Below, piece by piece: positions 3,622 to 21,754 of a DNA stretch of 24,000 bases. The number at the start of each line of letters is the position of its first letter. The first letter of the stretch is position 1. Source of the DNA: Arcicella sp. LKC2W. Lineage in GTDB: Bacteria > Bacteroidota > Bacteroidia > Cytophagales > Spirosomataceae. The translations under genes and the position numbers were made by a program. The notes beneath the pieces were generated by a model. The model searched no databases. It was not told the origin of the DNA and saw nothing but the letters and a program-made list of their open reading frames with translations. The DNA lies in assembly GCF_034931005.1 (NCBI RefSeq), contig NZ_JAYGIN010000004.1, positions 343,960 to 367,959 on the forward strand, given 5' to 3'.

Positions 3622-3629
3622 TAAATTTG
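3622..3629 (+). promoter_or_regulatory. Candidate Bacteroidota -7 promoter box TAAATTTG upstream of tag
   Basis: Exact match to the TAnnTTTG consensus 25 nt upstream of the tag ATG. No well-spaced -33 TTG (candidates give 12- and 24-nt spacers). Confidence 0.3.
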
Positions 3630-4315: not shown

Positions 4316-5056
4316 ATGAATTCACGTATCGTCATCATTCCTACTTATAACGAAATAGAAAACATTGAAGCCATTATACGTAAAGTGATGAGCCTTGAAC
4401 CTGCTTTCGATTTATTGATTGTAGATGATGGTTCTCCAGATGGAACTGGAAAAAAAGTTAAAGAATTACAAACCGAATTTGGGACAAATCGTTTGCACTT
4501 ACAGGAACGTAAAGGTAAATTAGGTTTAGGTACAGCTTATATTCATGGTTTTAAATATGCTTTAGGACTGAACTATGAGTATATTTTTGAAATGGATGCC
4601 GACTTTTCGCATAATCCAGATGATTTGGTAAGATTGTATAATGCTTGTGCCAATGACGGTGCAGACATGGCGATTGGTTCAAGATACATCAATGGTGTCA
4701 ATGTGGTAAACTGGCCAATGAGCCGTGTATTAATGTCATATTTTGCAGGATATTATGTAAGATTTATTACTGGTATTCCTGTAATGGATGTTACGGCAGG
4801 CTTTAAATGTTATACCGCTAAGGTTTTGAAAACCATTAATTTAGATTCTATAAAATTTGTTGGTTATGCGTTTCAAGTAGAAATGAAATTTACCACATGG
4901 AAATACGGTTTCAAAATTGTTGAAGTGCCAATTATTTTCACAGACCGTACAAAAGGACAATCTAAAATGTCTGCCAATATATTCCGTGAAGCAATTTTAG
5001 GAGTTATTCAAATGAAAATCAATAGCTTCTTTAAAAAATATAAGAGAAGTTTATGA
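4316..5056 (+). CDS. GT2-family polyprenol-phosphate mannosyltransferase (Dpm1-like)
   Basis: IVIPTYNEIENI, LLIVDDGSPDGT, EMDADFSH and GSRY motifs typical of the dolichyl/polyprenyl-phosphate mannose synthase-type GT-A fold. 246 aa. Confidence 0.85.
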   Translation: MNSRIVIIPTYNEIENIEAIIRKVMSLEPAFDLLIVDDGSPDGTGKKVKELQTEFGTNRLHLQERKGKLGLGTAYIHGFKYALGLNYEYIFEMDADFSHNPDDLVRLYNACANDGADMAIGSRYINGVNVVNWPMSRVLMSYFAGYYVRFITGIPVMDVTAGFKCYTAKVLKTINLDSIKFVGYAFQVEMKFTTWKYGFKIVEVPIIFTDRTKGQSKMSANIFREAILGVIQMKINSFFKKYKRSL

Positions 5057-5967: not shown

Positions 5968-7938
5968 TTAATTCAAAACCAATTTCACATCTTCTGCTTT
6001 TTGTTGAATTTTCTTTGTTCCTAAAATAGCTCTAACGGCTTCTGCAATTCCTTCAGGGTCGAAACCACATTCACGATGAAGTTCAATTTGTTCGCCGTGT
6101 TCAACAACTCGGTCAGGAATACCTAAACGTTTGATTTGAGCCGAGTAATCATGGTCTAACATAAACTCTGCTACCGCCGAACCAAATCCACCTTGAATAC
6201 AACCATCTTCTACCGTGATTACTTTATCATAATTTTGGAAAATTTCGTGTAACATCGCTTCGTCTAAAGGCTTTACAAAACGCATATCGTAATGTGCTGG
6301 ATTGATACCTTCTTTTTCAAGGATTTTACAAGTTTCAACGGCATAATTTCCAATATGTCCGAGTGTCAAAATCGCTACATTCTCCCCGTCTTTTATCTTT
6401 CTACCTTTACCAATTTCCATTTTCTCAAATGGTGTTTTCCAATCAGGCATAACACCTTCTCCACGTGGATAACGAATTGAAATACAACTTTTTAAGTCCT
6501 TAAAATTGTCTTGCGAAACGGTAAACATAATATCTCGTAATTCCTTTTCATTCATCGGAGAAAACACAATCATGTTCGGAATACAACGCATATACGCAAC
6601 GTCATACGCTCCATGATGGGTTGGTCCATCTGCACCTGCAAAACCCGCACGGTCAAGACAGAAAATAACAGGTAATTCTTGTATTGCTACATCATGAACC
6701 ACTTGGTCAAAAGCTCGTTGCATGAACGTTGAATAAATATTACAGAAAACGGTCAGACCTTGCGTTGCCATTCCTGCTGAGAAAGTTACAGCGTGTTGTT
6801 CGGCAATACCTACATCAAAAGCACGGTCGGGCATGGCTTTCATCATCAAATTCAATGAACTCCCTGAAGGCATAGCGGGCGTAACACCCATGATTTTGGC
6901 ATTTTGCTCTGCTAATTCAACAATAGTATGCCCGAAAACGTCCTGATATTTAGGAGGTTGTGGCGTAGAATAAACTTTTTTCTTGATTTCTCCTGTGATT
7001 TTATCAAATTTCCCTGGAGCGTGCCAAAGTGTCTGGTCTTTTTCGGCAAGGGCATAACCTTTGCCTTTGGTGGTAATGCAATGAAGAATTTTAGGGCCTG
7101 GAATGTCTTTCAAATCATTCAAAACCGTTACCATATATTCCACGTCATGCCCGTCGATTGGACCAAAATAACGAAGATTTAATGATTCAAATAAGTTGCT
7201 TTGATTGAGTAAAGTTGCTTTCAGTCCATTTTCTATTTTGGAAACAATATCTTGGGCAGATTTACCAAATTTGGACATTTTGCCTAATAAATTCCAAACT
7301 TCATCTTTTACACGATTGTAGGTATGAGAAGTGGTAATATCGGTCAAATATTCTTTTAAAGCCCCAACATTAGGGTCAATCGCCATGCAGTTGTCATTCA
7401 AAATAATAATCATGTTGTTAGGAATATCTCCCGCATGATTCATCGCTTCAAATGCCATTCCTGCTGTCATTGAGCCATCACCGATAATTGCTACGTGCTG
7501 ACGGTCTTTTTCACCTTTATACTGAGAAGCCACCGACATTCCCAAAGCCGCTGAAATCGAAGTTGAAGAGTGCCCTACACCAAAAGCATCGTATTTACTT
7601 TCCTTTCGTTTTGGAAAACCCGAAATGCCTCCATAAAGACGATTGGTATGAAAATTGTCTCGTCTCCCTGTCAAGATTTTATGTCCGTAAGCTTGATGAC
7701 CAACATCCCAAACTAATTGGTCATTTGGGGTATTGAAAACGTAATGAAGTGCCACCGATAGCTCAACCACGCCCAATGAAGCACCAAAGTGTCCTCCAAA
7801 AACAGACACATCATCAATAATATATTGACGAAGTTCATCACAAATTTGGATTAATTCCGAGCGGTCTCTATTTCTTAAATCCTCTGGGGAGTTAATTTGA
7901 GCCAATATTTTGCCAGGGGTGATTTGCATGGGTTTCAA
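5968..7938 (-). CDS. dxs: 1-deoxy-D-xylulose-5-phosphate synthase
   Basis: GGHFGASLGVVEL, DVGHQAYGHKILTGR and IGDGSMTAGMAFEAMNHAG (TPP-binding) motifs, plus transketolase-like C-terminal domains. An alternative ATG at 7929 is possible. Confidence 0.95.
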   Translation of the reverse strand: MKPMQITPGKILAQINSPEDLRNRDRSELIQICDELRQYIIDDVSVFGGHFGASLGVVELSVALHYVFNTPNDQLVWDVGHQAYGHKILTGRRDNFHTNRLYGGISGFPKRKESKYDAFGVGHSSTSISAALGMSVASQYKGEKDRQHVAIIGDGSMTAGMAFEAMNHAGDIPNNMIIILNDNCMAIDPNVGALKEYLTDITTSHTYNRVKDEVWNLLGKMSKFGKSAQDIVSKIENGLKATLLNQSNLFESLNLRYFGPIDGHDVEYMVTVLNDLKDIPGPKILHCITTKGKGYALAEKDQTLWHAPGKFDKITGEIKKKVYSTPQPPKYQDVFGHTIVELAEQNAKIMGVTPAMPSGSSLNLMMKAMPDRAFDVGIAEQHAVTFSAGMATQGLTVFCNIYSTFMQRAFDQVVHDVAIQELPVIFCLDRAGFAGADGPTHHGAYDVAYMRCIPNMIVFSPMNEKELRDIMFTVSQDNFKDLKSCISIRYPRGEGVMPDWKTPFEKMEIGKGRKIKDGENVAILTLGHIGNYAVETCKILEKEGINPAHYDMRFVKPLDEAMLHEIFQNYDKVITVEDGCIQGGFGSAVAEFMLDHDYSAQIKRLGIPDRVVEHGEQIELHRECGFDPEGIAEAVRAILGTKKIQQKAEDVKLVLN

Positions 7939-18422: not shown

Positions 18423-20183
18423 ATGAAAATACTATTACGTTATCTGAAAAAACACCAAACAACCGTTTTTGGAGCTTTGTTTTTAGCAGCAATCAATCAA
18501 ATTTTTTCTCTTCTTGACCCATTTATTTTTCGCAAAATTATTGACGATGTAGCAAATGTGTATCGCTCAAATACACATACCGTTGAAGATTTTTTACACG
18601 CTATTATTCCACTAACATTAGCGTCTATCGGAGTGGCATTTGTGAGTCGGGTAGCCAAAAATTTTCAGGATTATTTTATCAATACCGTTACTCAAAAAGT
18701 GGGGGCTCAAATCTATGCAGACGGTATTAGCCATTCTTTAGAATTACCTTATGAATCTTTTGAAGACCAACGTTCGGGAGAAACTTTAGGGAAATTGCAA
18801 AAGGTACGTACCGACGTTGAGAAAATTATCACCGTAGGAATTAATATTCTTTTCCAATCGGTTATTGCTCTAATTTTCATTTCGATTTATGCATTTTCGG
18901 TACATTGGATGATTTTGCCTTTGTTTTTGATAACGGGCCCACTCATTGCATGGATTAGTTCAGTGTTGAGCAAAAAAATCAAAACGATTCAGATTCAAAT
19001 CGTGAAGGAATCAACGGGTTTGGCAGGTTCAACGACCGAATCTTTACGTAATATCGAATTGGTAAAATCATTGGGTTTGGCAAAACAGGAAATTGCTCAG
19101 TTGAATGCCACGACTCAAAAAATCTTAAAATTAGAACTCAAAAAGGTGCGTTACGTGCGTTCAATGTCGTTTGTACAAGGAACGGTCGTAAACTTCTTGC
19201 GTGCGATGATGGTGTTGGTTTTGATTTATTTGATTTACGAAAACAAAATTACACTTGGACAATTTTACTCCCTGAACATTTATTCATTCTTCTTATTTGG
19301 GCCACTCCAAGAAATTGGTAACGTAGTAAATACTTACCGTGAGGCGGAGGTTTCACTGCAAAACTTTGAAGATATTTTCAAGATTCCAGTGGAAGTAAAA
19401 CCTGCTAATCCATATCCAGTGATTAGCATTGATTCGCTTGAATTTCAAGATGTTAAGTTTAAACATCAATCTGCGAATAAAGACGCTTTGCGTAAAATTA
19501 ATTTCAAGGCACAACGTGGCGAAACCATTGCTTTTGTAGGGCCATCGGGGTCGGGAAAATCTACTTTGGTGAAATTATTGGTTGGACTTTATCGTCCGAA
19601 AGAAGGAAAAATTTTGTACAACGGACATAATTACGACGAAATTGACTTCGACCAACTCCGTGAACGCATCGGTTTTGTAACGCAAGATACGCAGTTATTT
19701 TCGGGAACAATTCGAGAAAATTTATTATTCGTAAATCCAACGGCAACCGACGAACAATGTTTGGACGTATTGAGAAAAGCCGCTTGTCATACCCTTTTAG
19801 ACCGTGCTGAAAATGGCTTAGATACCATCATCGGAGAAGGTGGCGTAAAAGTATCGGGCGGAGAAAAACAACGTTTGAGTATCGCCAGAGCCTTATTACG
19901 TAATCCGAATTTATTGGTTTTTGACGAAGCAACCTCTTCATTAGATTCATTGACGGAAGAAGAAATTTCAGAAACCATCCGTGAAGTTTCGGAAGGCACA
20001 ACGCATTTAACCATCGTAATTGCTCACCGCCTCAGTACCATCATGCACGCCACCAATATTTTTGTGTTAGAAAAAGGAAAAATAGTAGAAAACGGCTCGC
20101 ATGAAGAATTATTGGAAAACAAAGGTTTGTACTATGCGATGTGGAGACAACAGGTTGGCGAAAAAGATTTAATCGAAGAATAA
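18423..20183 (+). CDS. ABC exporter, fused permease/ATPase half-transporter (MsbA/type I exporter-like)
   Basis: Six N-terminal TM helices. Walker A GPSGSGKST, signature VSGGEKQRLSIARA, Walker B LLVFDEATSSLD and H-loop IAHRLST. No N-terminal C39 peptidase domain. I prefer the ATG at 18423, because the TTG at 18375 lies inside the upstream hairpin. Confidence 0.9.
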   Translation: MKILLRYLKKHQTTVFGALFLAAINQIFSLLDPFIFRKIIDDVANVYRSNTHTVEDFLHAIIPLTLASIGVAFVSRVAKNFQDYFINTVTQKVGAQIYADGISHSLELPYESFEDQRSGETLGKLQKVRTDVEKIITVGINILFQSVIALIFISIYAFSVHWMILPLFLITGPLIAWISSVLSKKIKTIQIQIVKESTGLAGSTTESLRNIELVKSLGLAKQEIAQLNATTQKILKLELKKVRYVRSMSFVQGTVVNFLRAMMVLVLIYLIYENKITLGQFYSLNIYSFFLFGPLQEIGNVVNTYREAEVSLQNFEDIFKIPVEVKPANPYPVISIDSLEFQDVKFKHQSANKDALRKINFKAQRGETIAFVGPSGSGKSTLVKLLVGLYRPKEGKILYNGHNYDEIDFDQLRERIGFVTQDTQLFSGTIRENLLFVNPTATDEQCLDVLRKAACHTLLDRAENGLDTIIGEGGVKVSGGEKQRLSIARALLRNPNLLVFDEATSSLDSLTEEEISETIREVSEGTTHLTIVIAHRLSTIMHATNIFVLEKGKIVENGSHEELLENKGLYYAMWRQQVGEKDLIEE

Positions 20184-20187
20184 TATC

Positions 20188-20213
20188 AGTAGAGACGTTG
20201 CCTGCAACGTCTT
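20188..20213 (+). terminator. Left arm of the 26-bp perfect inverted repeat; a self-folding hairpin 5 nt after the ABC stop codon
   Basis: agtag-agacgttgc-ct-gcaacgtct-t: the internal 9-bp palindrome agacgttgc/gcaacgtct is followed by tttat. It is the exact reverse complement of 20540-20565. Confidence 0.6.
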
Positions 20214-20486
20214 TATCGCAACGTTTTGACCCACAATGTCTTTATCACAATGTTTTGACCCACAACGTCTTTATCGCAGTTTTGACCCACAACGTCTTTA
20301 TCGCAACGTTTTGACCCACAACGTCTTTATCGCAACGTTTTGACCCACAACGTCTTTATCGCAACGTTTTGACCCACAACGTCTTTATCGCAACGTTTTG
20401 ACCCACAACGTCATTATCGCAACGTTTTGACCCACAACGTCTTGATAGCAACATTTTGACCCACAATGTCTTGATAGCAACGTTTA
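20205..20486. repeat. Tandem array of a 29-bp unit, nine full copies plus one partial (consensus CAACGTCTTTATCGCAACGTTTTGACCCA)
   Basis: Copies start at 20205, 20234, 20263 (27 nt, AC deleted), 20290, 20319, 20348, 20377, 20406, 20435 and 20464 (partial). Copies 1 and 4-7 are identical. Copies 2, 3 and 8-10 are diverged. There are no spacers and no ORF. Confidence 0.95.
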
Positions 20487-20539
20487 ATTTAGATTATTCA
20501 ATAAATTTATTATGAATATTGTTGCCTGTAATGCCCTCT

Positions 20540-20565
20540 AAGACGTTGCAGGCAACGTCTCTACT
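20540..20565. repeat. Right arm of the 26-bp perfect inverted repeat; a self-folding hairpin 29 nt upstream of the MFS ATG
   Basis: a-agacgttgc-ag-gcaacgtct-ctact is the exact reverse complement of 20188-20213. Confidence 0.9.
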
Positions 20566-20593
20566 ATAAATATTGATTCTCAAACACGCCACG

Positions 20594-21754
20594 ATGAAAC
20601 GGATTTTACCCATTATTGTCATTTCTCAATTTTTCTGTACGTCGCTTTGGTTTGCAGGAAATGCCATTTTACCTGATTTAGCCAAACATTTTAATATTGA
20701 GGCGAATAATATCGCTCATTTAGTAAGTGCCGTTCAGTTTGGTTTTATATCGGGAACTTTCGTTTTTGCTCTTTCTGGACTGGTGGATAGATTTGTGGCT
20801 ACTCGTATATTCTTTGTTTGCTCCATTTTGGCGGCTTTGTGCAATATTAGCGTTGTGATTTTGCCAACAACAGAAGCTATTTTGTTGATTTCTCGCTTTT
20901 TAACGGGTTTTTTCTTGGCAGGCATTTATCCCGTAGGCATGAAAATAGCTTCCGACCATTACCAAAAAGGTTTGGGCAAATCGTTGGGTTTATTAGTAGG
21001 AGCTTTGGTATTGGGAACGGCTTTCCCGCATTTTTTGAAAGGATTTAATACCAATTATTCGTGGGAATTTGTCCTTTGGGCTACTTCTGGACTTTCGGTT
21101 TTGGGTGGTTCAATGATGTTAATTTTTGTACCCAAAGGTCAATTTTCATCAGTTTCTAAGAAAATTGATTTCAAAGCGATTAGTAACGGCTTTAAAATCC
21201 ACAATTTCCGAAGTCCAGCTTTGGGATATTTTGGACACATGTGGGAATTATACACTTTTTGGGCATTTTTGCCCGCCTTGATTTTGTCTTATAAAAATCA
21301 GCATTATCAAACAGATATTAATGTTGCTCAATGGTCGTTTGTGATAATTGCTTCTGGTTCGGTGGCTTGTGTTATTGGAGGTTATCTTTCTGAATATTTT
21401 GGAATGAAAACTGTTGCTATTTCTGCTCTTGGTTTGTCTTGTCTCTGTTGTTTGATTTCTCCAATTTTACTTACTTATGCCAATGCTCCTGCTTTATTTT
21501 GTTTCCTATTATTTTGGGGAATGGTCGTTATTGCAGATTCGCCATTATTTTCAACTTTAGTCGCTCAAAATGCCCCAGTAGCATCAAAAGGGACATTGTT
21601 GACCATTACCAATAGCATTGGTTTTTCTTTAACAATTATCAGTATTCAGTTTTTAGGACTATTGTCAAGTGTGATAAATACCAATTATTTATACACTTTT
21701 TTGGCTATTGGTCCATTGTTGGGGATAGTTATGCTTCTTAAAAAAGAATCTTAA
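20594..21754 (+). CDS. MFS-family transporter (12 TM)
   Basis: About 386 aa and highly hydrophobic, with the two-times-six TM layout and an MFS-like loop motif (RFLTGFFLAGIYPVGMKIASD). I prefer the ATG at 20594 over the TTG at 20573 in the ORF track. Confidence 0.8.
   Translation: MKRILPIIVISQFFCTSLWFAGNAILPDLAKHFNIEANNIAHLVSAVQFGFISGTFVFALSGLVDRFVATRIFFVCSILAALCNISVVILPTTEAILLISRFLTGFFLAGIYPVGMKIASDHYQKGLGKSLGLLVGALVLGTAFPHFLKGFNTNYSWEFVLWATSGLSVLGGSMMLIFVPKGQFSSVSKKIDFKAISNGFKIHNFRSPALGYFGHMWELYTFWAFLPALILSYKNQHYQTDINVAQWSFVIIASGSVACVIGGYLSEYFGMKTVAISALGLSCLCCLISPILLTYANAPALFCFLLFWGMVVIADSPLFSTLVAQNAPVASKGTLLTITNSIGFSLTIISIQFLGLLSSVINTNYLYTFLAIGPLLGIVMLLKKES

Follow-up and report, generated by a model that had tools for sequence, protein, structure and literature searches.

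The window analysed here is a 24,000-nucleotide (nt) stretch of the genome of Arcicella sp. LKC2W (Cytophagales; contig NZ_JAYGIN010000004.1, positions 343,960 to 367,959), in which an intergenic gap of 411 nt separates the stop codon of an MsbA-like ATP-binding cassette (ABC) exporter gene (20181-20183) from the ATG of a major facilitator superfamily (MFS) transporter gene (20595). This gap contains a 378-bp element (20188-20565), composed of a tandem array of 29-nt units enclosed by two inverted hairpin arms. With a probability of about 0.78, the element is a cluster of repetitive extragenic palindromes (REPs), that is, an inverted dimer with its GTAG ends outside, accompanied by a decayed third copy, in which a hypervariable minisatellite derived from a REP arm has grown locally.

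Architecture of the intergenic element

The two arms are exact reverse complements over 26 nt (20188-20213 and 20540-20565) and each of them folds into a hairpin by itself, in agreement with the original prediction, which had been made from the sequence of the window without database searches. The inverted repeat stretches to 35 nt at 89% (20179-20213 and 20540-20574). The left hairpin reads AGACGTTGC-CT-GCAACGTCT and the right one AGACGTTGC-AG-GCAACGTCT, and GACGTTGCNNGCAACGTC has two sites in the window, one in each arm, for a chance expectation of 0.00. The rule for recognising a REP (PMC6006769, Methods) asks for a hairpin whose basal stem is fully paired over 7-20 nt and whose loop has 2-5 nt, with a GT[AG]G tetranucleotide 0-2 nt to its 5' side. 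Both arms conform to this rule: on the left, GTAG (20189-20192) directly abuts a 9-bp stem closed by the 2-nt loop CT, and the same arrangement is mirrored on the minus strand at 20541-20564, where CTAC (20561-20564) represents the GTAG foot. These two feet, together with the family match described below, identify the arms as a dimer of this REP family with the GTAG feet outside. The left foot lies 5 nt, and the left stem 9 nt, past the stop codon of the ABC exporter gene, and the 3' foot of the left REP is degenerate, with TTAT where CTAC would be expected. A third copy in the orientation of the left REP precedes the right one in decayed form, and its differences from GTTGCCTGCAACG are C-to-T changes. 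The GTAG and CTAC ends of the arms, the decayed third hairpin and the relationship of the 29-nt unit to the REP had all been overlooked in the original prediction.

Tandem repeats were searched with Tandem Repeats Finder (TRF), and inverted repeats and pattern counts were obtained over the same 24,000 nt. Between the ABC exporter stop and the MFS start, TRF reports an array with a period of 29 nt, 9.8 copies, 93% matches, a score of 478 and the consensus CAACGTCTTTATCGCAACGTTTTGACCCA, whereas no further array in the window scores above 52. As had been claimed, the array begins inside the 3' arm of the left hairpin (at 20205, the stem being 20204-20212). Ten units can be set in register. Units 4-7, as well as edge unit 1, are identical to the consensus, which supports the predicted identity of the central copies; unit 3 carries a 2-nt deletion, and substitutions are found in units 2, 8, 9 and 10. 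Each unit is indeed a diverged dimer, in which sub-unit A (GCAACGTCTTTATC) alternates with sub-unit B (GCAACGTTTTGACCCA), and both derive from the 3' half of the REP, GCAACGTCTCTAC, from which they have diverged. The array as a whole is a series of about 20 tandem diverged half-REPs, all in one orientation and therefore unable to pair with one another. CAACGT-like hexamers, counted by hand from the listing of the array units, recur with the regular 14/15-nt spacing described before, although the earlier figure of about 20 was slightly generous: 19 are present, 15 of them exact and four with a single change (CAATGT or CAACAT). The units are contiguous, their start-to-start spacing of 29 nt being equal to the unit length, and both CRISPR and an open reading frame (ORF) had rightly been dismissed. 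A CRISPR locus is also rejected by the lack of spacers and of cas genes among the NCBIfam/Pfam annotations of the neighbouring genes.

A separate observation concerns the type of the substitutions. Half of those in the variant units (5 of 10; units 2, 9 and 10, 20234-20492) are CpG-to-TpG or CpG-to-CpA transitions, turning CAACGT into CAATGT or CAACAT, and the differences in the decayed third REP (20521-20533) are likewise of this kind; CpG represents only 6 of the 29 unit positions. Judged from the sequence, this bias could reflect cytosine methylation at ACGT/AACGTT sites in the LKC2W genome.

Variation of the site among Arcicella relatives

Relatives were chosen by the identity of their ABC exporter to that of LKC2W (90-99%; loci L143-L154), and the site directly 3' of the exporter stop shows an allelic series across them. 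At 99% identity (L143/L144 and L145), a single decaying left REP is followed by a classical terminator. At 95% (L148/L149), the left and right REPs are both present with about 107 nt between their cores, including the decayed copy, and no array. Arcicella aurantiaca (L146/L147; 98%) harbours two arrays: a 23-nt x4.6 array (CCTGCAACGTCTTGCCTGTCTTA) that emerges from the left REP at its loop and 3' arm and, beyond the conserved spacer, a 19-nt x6.9 array (TCTTAAACCTAAGAGGTTA) that runs into the 5' arm of the right REP. No REP is found in L150/L151 (98%) or in L152-154 (90%). Within L143-L149 the left REP is kept at an equal position past the ABC stop, and the right REP is identical in L146 and L148, where its end lies 1-2 nt 5' of the start codon of a GH43 glycoside hydrolase gene. 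The LKC2W array is absent, or replaced by unrelated units, in relatives with 95-99% identity of the ABC exporter, and the polymorphism in copy number that had been proposed as a check is evident, together with variation in unit sequence, as zero, different or multiple arrays at the same site. The REP dimer is ancestral at this position, and the arrays have grown out of a REP arm and its flank in individual lineages. In L150 (2543-2615) and L151 (2457-2529), the REP is replaced by an unrelated long imperfect palindrome, GACAAAGCTTGGACGCTTTG ... CAAAGTGTCCAAGTTCTGTC, past the same stop codon.

The Arcicella relatives have a second REP dimer, with loops CT and AG and GTAG outside, which follows a radical-SAM gene at a distance of about 8 kb from the first dimer, and its spacer is unrelated to that of the first. 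It bears a vestigial, decayed two-copy repeat in L143 and L145, and a 22-nt x3.7 array (CCTGCAACGTCTTTTTTATATA) consisting of loop, 3' arm and T-rich flank in A. aurantiaca. The four independent Arcicella arrays have unrelated unit tails, and in each of them the repeat begins in the arm of the REP that faces away from the GTAG foot. They suggest that one REP arm can seed minisatellites with a fixed polarity. Tandem duplications of half-REPs are also present in other phyla (17 nt x5.1 in L014, 21 nt x3.5 in L050, 15 nt x3 in L141, 18 nt x2.1 in L052 and 52 nt x3 in L125).

Regarding the uniqueness of the parts, which had been left to a search, the hairpin is multi-copy as a family (at least 120 genome stretches), whereas the 29-nt array unit was not found in viral contigs, Joint Genome Institute (JGI) metagenomes, plasmids or phages (the latter two by blastn). 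A scan of the JGI metagenomes for an interior 20-mer and 22-mer returned only two chance matches, in coding DNA. Near-identical copies of the whole unit, interior included, were found neither in the viral and JGI metagenome collections nor at the second dimer.

The genes around the element encode the ABC exporter, the MFS transporter, DUF2490, DUF4956, VTC, IlvA and CysS, and their synteny is conserved on chromosomal contigs. In relatives, the ABC exporter and MFS genes are separated by the GH43 gene (L143 11954-13163, L146 12108-13971, L148 4923-7500). LKC2W lacks it, and the MFS gene is next to the cluster only in this strain because GH43 was deleted, with a junction that abuts the foot of the right REP. 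Close homologues of the MFS gene (93% and 87% identical) have neither a REP nor an array upstream. Some relatives also carry a minus-strand gene of 224-227 amino acids (aa) at this position, and one carries a DinB_2 gene; both are missing from LKC2W.

A palindrome family shared across phyla

The arms are copies of the palindrome family GTAG-AGACGTTGC-NN-GCAACGTCT-CTAC, whose sequence is identical across many phyla. Its consensus is the 28-nt palindrome GTAGAGACGTTGC-NN-GCAACGTCTCTAC, embedded in wholly unrelated flanks (L001-L018, L023-L142; e.g. L094 4940-4967 and L038 3886-3913). The string GAGACGTTGCNNGCAACGTCT is present in 18 viral-contig stretches and in at least 120 genome stretches. 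The figures given for the family hereafter refer to the matches listed and stem from genomes other than LKC2W, for which the hairpin and its associated transposase were sought in the 24-kb window. The genome matches belong to Cyanobacteria, Acidobacteriota, Bacteroidota (Spirosomataceae, Runella, Emticicia), Chloroflexota, Desulfuromonadota, Patescibacteria and Gammaproteobacteria, among others, and several genomes give 2-4 hairpin loci. The palindrome is conserved base for base despite the very different G+C content of these genomes, viral contigs included. Loops look typical of the taxon: AT is the commonest overall and in most cyanobacterial copies, TT and AA are common in Acidobacteriota, and GC is recurrent in metagenome-assembled genomes of the Bacteroidales type. 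When the inner stem is relaxed, a 9-bp base GTAGAGACG/CGTCTCTAC remains constant, while the inner 4-5 bp vary in a complementary manner (TAGC, CAAA, TAAC, CGCC, GGGC and others).

According to a crude ORF call, 86 of 126 palindromes are intergenic. Where a gene is present on both sides (69 palindromes), the two are co-directional in 45 cases, convergent in 19 and divergent in five. Many palindromes are situated 0-25 nt past a stop codon, and in eight of them an ORF of 90 aa or more terminates at the TAG of the GTAG foot itself. A literature search for the palindrome as a string returned one unrelated paper only, and the supplements of PMC6006769 and PMC3733652 contain neither the palindrome sequence nor the Cytophagales genera searched for.

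Some individual loci show further features. In Runella defluvii (L094), two tandem paralogues of about 800 aa each terminate at the TAG of a REP foot (4940-4967 and 7374-7401), and the next gene begins about 27 nt beyond the REP; the paralogues are presumably FtsX/MacB-type ABC permeases, as their appearance indicates. One viral contig of about 10.6 kb (L018, IMGVR_UViG_3300014914_000039) contains at least seven GTAGAGACG...CGTCTCTAC hairpins between 2181 and 9460, with several inner stems (CAAA, CAAG, CAAGG, TTG and TTGCA). In Acidobacteriota (L095 4676-4740, L096 2358-2420, L093, L123 and L105/L130), a palindrome with a TTGC stem is often found 15-40 nt from a sister with a TAGC or CAGC stem (e.g. 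GAGACGTAGCAAGCTACGTCTCTAC). By their sequence, these pairs are taken as REP dimers that combine two sub-families, and they recall the pairing of Y and Z REPs in E. coli.

Association with RAYT transposases

REPs, which are non-autonomous, are presumed to be moved in trans by REP-associated tyrosine transposases (RAYTs). All-against-all clustering of the ORFs around the listed palindromes yields a single recurrent neighbour, a RAYT-like protein of about 186 aa with the motifs MPNHIHGI, WQ and YIxxNP; no other flanking family recurs near them, the largest clusters being generic signalling and kinase domains. At four loci the palindrome is placed in frame inside the RAYT-like gene, of the IS200-like Y1/HUH type, just past the HUH motif (Table 1), and is translated as DVACNVST, DVASNVST or VETLHATSL. 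The RAYT-like proteins match the NCBIfam model NF047646, "REP-associated tyrosine transposase", with E values of 6e-16 to 2e-17. Among TnpA_REP proteins, subclass 2.4 is distinguished by the motifs NH[IFV]H, WQ and YIxNNP and by "long" and "double foot" REPs; it is the only subclass with REPs inserted within tnpA_REP, and it is distributed over Cyanobacteria, Bacteroidetes and various other phyla (PMC6006769, Table 1). The hairpin family accordingly corresponds, on sequence grounds, to the REP type of subclass 2.4, including the location of a REP within the tnpA_REP gene. Since a REP lies inside the gene of its putative transposase, REP and enzyme can travel together, and the identity of the palindrome across phyla suggests that it has spread horizontally with the RAYT gene containing it. 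A RAYT homologue was found neither in the window nor in about 150 kb of Arcicella-related loci.

Table 1. Positions of the features at the LKC2W locus (window coordinates) and of related features at other loci (L numbers).
Feature	Position	Strand	Details and basis
ABC exporter gene (MsbA-like, 18423-20183), TAA stop	20181-20183	+	Translation; NCBIfam MsbA-like matches; protein 100% identical to one of LKC2W
Left REP	20189-20212	+	GTAG foot 20189-20192, stem AGACGTTGC 20193-20201, loop CT 20202-20203, stem GCAACGTCT 20204-20212
Minisatellite, 9.8 x 29 nt (CAACGTCTTTATCG + CAACGTTTTGACCCA)	20205-20485	+	TRF; overlaps the 3' arm of the left REP
AT-rich spacer AATTTAGATTATTCAATAAATTTATTATGAATA	20486-20516	+	Conserved in L146 (A. 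aurantiaca) and in L148, the allele without an array; alignment
Third REP copy, decayed (core GTTGCCTGTAATG, 20521-20533)	20517-20540	+	Orientation of the left REP; also in L146 and L148 as GTTGCCTGCAATGTCTTAC
Right REP, inverted relative to the left	20541-20564	-	Stem AGACGTTGC 20541-20549, loop AG 20550-20551, stem GCAACGTCT 20552-20560, CTAC foot 20561-20564
Deletion junction, strain-specific	20568-20581		GH43-side homology stops at about 20570, MFS-side homology from 20582; gene maps, blastn and local alignments
MFS transporter gene, 386 aa from ATG	20595-21754	+	100% match to the LKC2W protein of that name
Second REP dimer	L143 19433-19541; L145 19430-19539; L146 20612-20763		About 3 kb beyond the VTC gene, about 2.9 kb past the right end of the window
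RAYT-like gene with internal REP	L047 2154-2714	+	HUH motif, WQ, YIxxNP
RAYT-like gene with internal REP	L111 5142-5684	-	HUH motif, WQ, YIxxNP
RAYT-like gene with internal REP	L121 3543-4109	+	HUH motif, WQ, YIxxNP
RAYT-like gene with internal REP	L079 5101-5642	-	Split into two ORFs in the region past the HUH motif

Origin of the array and alternative explanations

The explanation favoured here is that of a REP cluster with a locally grown array, which is probably a product of slippage or unequal exchange at the hairpin. The first event would be a local tandem duplication covering the left REP's 3' half and a few bases of its flank, and this duplication would then be repeated. A unit of about 14 nt would have appeared first and diverged into the 29-nt dimer, and the dimer would subsequently have been amplified. 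Slipped-strand mispairing or unequal exchange could keep the units uniform, in which case the identical central units would represent a recent homogenisation, and the variant units would represent decay, biased to CpG transitions. The hairpin itself may promote the duplication, either by fork stalling, slippage or template misalignment when it is extruded in single-stranded DNA, or through a RAYT nick. The array thus appears to be an unstable by-product of selfish hairpin DNA without a dedicated function, and its effect on the ABC exporter or MFS transcripts, if any, would be incidental. As for the left REP, by analogy a 3' stem-loop 9 nt past the ABC stop could act as a stabiliser of the mRNA end, as an attenuator or terminator, or as a translation brake; effects of REPs on transcripts and on terminating ribosomes are established (references 27-30 cited in PMC6006769).

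Several points weigh against this explanation. The tandem repeats that overlap palindromes across all phyla number 7, against 3.8 +/- 1.9 at random positions, an enrichment of about 2-fold that is not significant, so that the proposed promotion of arrays by the hairpin depends chiefly on the four independent Arcicella arrays. In LKC2W the hairpin is known from this one cluster in the 24 kb covered. The assignment of the RAYT-like proteins is affected by NF047646 scores below the curated cutoff and by Pfam Y1_Tnp scores of 21.9 and 23.9 bits, which are only near the cutoff of 23. Finally, the array may have acquired a function. The exact -7 box of Bacteroidetes (TAnnTTTG) is absent from the 411-nt gap, and transcription of the MFS gene may therefore read through the REP cluster from upstream. 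A scan of the intergenic region for sigma-70 promoters and terminators gave nothing usable. Elsewhere in the window, exact -7 boxes (mostly TAAATTTG) occur at 3622, 4259, 8026(-), 9075(-), 11552(-), 12957 and 16963(-), about 5-80 nt before gene starts.

A stronger version of the proposal assigns an active role to the REPs. Those of the subclass 2.4 type would act as generators of minisatellites, with HUH-nuclease cleavage and rejoining, or fork stalling, duplicating the loop or 3' arm into the flank, always opposite the GTAG foot; such a role is rather unlikely. If it were true, hypervariable arrays would form beside genes, the 5' region of the downstream gene would change from strain to strain, and behaviour as a contingency locus would be possible. 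To our knowledge, such a mechanistic link between a domesticated transposase system and the genesis of tandem repeats has not been described earlier.

By the reckoning of the original prediction itself, occurrence of the hairpin at many unrelated sites with variable arrays would point to a generic satellite. The hairpin does occur in at least 120 genome stretches from many phyla, and the second dimer of the relatives bears a different array, by which readings that attribute a special function to the element are weakened. One of them is a regulatory spacer of variable copy number, in which the length of the array would tune read-through or the distance and phase of a promoter, so that expression would take on states that are inherited yet unstable. 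Close relatives do differ in the sequence and number of the units, the cluster directly precedes the next gene (in L146 and L148 by the 1-2 nt that separate the right REP from the GH43 ATG), and read-through is plausible, given that there is no canonical -7 box between the array and the MFS ATG. The downstream gene, however, varies, as the cluster precedes GH43 in relatives and MFS in LKC2W, so a spacer dedicated to control of the MFS gene, as originally suggested, is not supported; several relatives lack an array or even any REP, and arrays also grow at the second, unrelated dimer. Variation would thus be a property of the REP rather than of the regulated gene, and the spacer is decidedly unlikely. 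Closest to the present interpretation was the suggestion of a non-autonomous element bounded by terminal inverted repeats: the arms are REPs in the geometry of a REPIN or HH dimer, with exact 26-nt inverted arms and GTAG/CTAC outside, and the family is linked to RAYT-like transposases. What is not supported is a mobile unit, similar to a REPIN or to a miniature inverted-repeat transposable element, that moves as a whole and carries the array as cargo, the array being a local outgrowth. Lineages with 95-98% ABC identity have the dimer at the same site, each with an interior of its own, which was not found elsewhere in the viral, JGI metagenome, plasmid and phage collections, the spacer of the second dimer is unrelated, and the element stayed in place while the adjacent gene was deleted. 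Such a unit is very improbable.

An iteron- or centromere-like array comparable to sopC or parC, or an array that titrates a regulator of CAACGT/AACGTT, would account for a hexamer that recurs some 19 times every 14/15 nt and for the palindromic form, AACGTT, of one site per unit. The hexamer is nonetheless the core of the REP arm; no rep, par or regulator gene is adjacent, the surroundings being a conserved chromosomal housekeeping context without linkage to a replication-initiator or ParB/SopB-type gene; the plasmid and phage searches gave no match, and the array is not conserved even at 99% identity of the ABC exporter, all of which makes this possibility extremely remote. The idea of a structured non-coding RNA, or of a riboswitch-like leader of the MFS gene, holds for the two hairpins only. 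The good folding of the whole element (z = -6.95) results from pairing of the arms, whereas the array alone folds no better than shuffled sequences (z = -0.43) and its same-orientation sub-units cannot pair. In Rfam, the window has no match at the gathering threshold (with E values up to 10 only noise appears, the best being whalefall-1 with 15.3 bits against 37), and the canonical palindromes of 18 loci have none either; the array is not conserved in relatives, and no homologous arrays were present in the data searched. This reading is scarcely credible. The same applies to an assembly artefact in copy number, which the four identical central units (116 bp) might have favoured by collapse or inflation in a short-read assembly. 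Private variants, counted as anchors, are present in six of the ten units, and comparable arrays with the same anchor occur in the independent A. aurantiaca assembly GCA_003148625.1 and in a Logan assembly of another run (L147).

Significance and relationship to known systems

Under the REP-cluster explanation, the repeat is understood as an outgrowth of selfish or domesticated hairpin DNA, which avoids its mis-annotation as an iteron, a CRISPR-like locus or a riboswitch. Sites without a REP, with a decaying REP, with an array-free dimer and with dimers that bear three or four different arrays make the Arcicella allelic series a compact natural example of how REP clusters diversify. The locus can serve as a hypervariable marker for strain typing, and strains might also differ here in how the downstream gene is expressed. 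A dedicated survey of the 28-nt palindrome would be worthwhile, given its exact conservation in many phyla.

The canonical REP of subclass 2.4 has a 5' GT[AG]G foot, a stem of 9-13 bp and a 2-nt loop, and is framed by a 5'-terminal GTAG and a 3'-terminal CTAC (PMC6006769). The family described here resembles it in foot, stem and loop, and in its distribution over Bacteroidetes, Cyanobacteria and scattered phyla, although the copies in the window have the outer foot only. It has been proposed that double-foot REPs could arise by a central deletion of an inverted dimer (PMC6006769), and the proposed precursor is the arrangement seen in the window, whereas half-REP arrays are not described in that work. 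REPINs, whose geometry is seen in the window's pair, are also named there (PMC6006769). In the GTAG-tagged REP superfamily, GTAG-outside dimers (called HH) are common, and REP clusters may be reiterated in tandem together with flanking DNA (PMC3733652). The window shares with it the GTAG-outside dimer, the placement 3' of coding regions and the co-directional or convergent genes. Typical dimers of that superfamily are 1-100 bp apart and no GTAG families are listed in Bacteroidetes (PMC3733652); in the window the gap is 326 bp, and the reiterated unit is a half-REP instead of a whole REP or dimer. The gap is this wide because the array sits inside it.

Among other repeats, the bacterial interspersed mosaic elements (BIMEs) of E. 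coli have units with entire REP hairpins in the two orientations, and these units are bound by IHF, gyrase or Pol I. The likeness lies in the mosaic of REPs of alternating orientation, the conserved linkers, the tandem units that vary among strains and the location in 3' untranslated regions of operons; the array of the window differs in having only same-orientation half-sites, which are unable to fold. Plasmid iterons and the sopC and parC sites are similar in that they consist of direct repeats in tandem, in which a short motif returns about once per 1.4 helical turns, but have no counterpart here to their linked rep or par gene, the LKC2W array being chromosomal, not conserved and built on a motif that is the core of a REP arm. 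CRISPR arrays share short repeats with a partial palindrome, and differ by their spacers, which are lacking here. REPs and their dimers, BIME-like clusters and the RAYTs of subclass 2.4 are already known, whereas a minisatellite made solely of same-orientation half-REPs and nested within a REP dimer appears not to have been described, and neither does the repeated emergence of such arrays within a single genus, always with one polarity.

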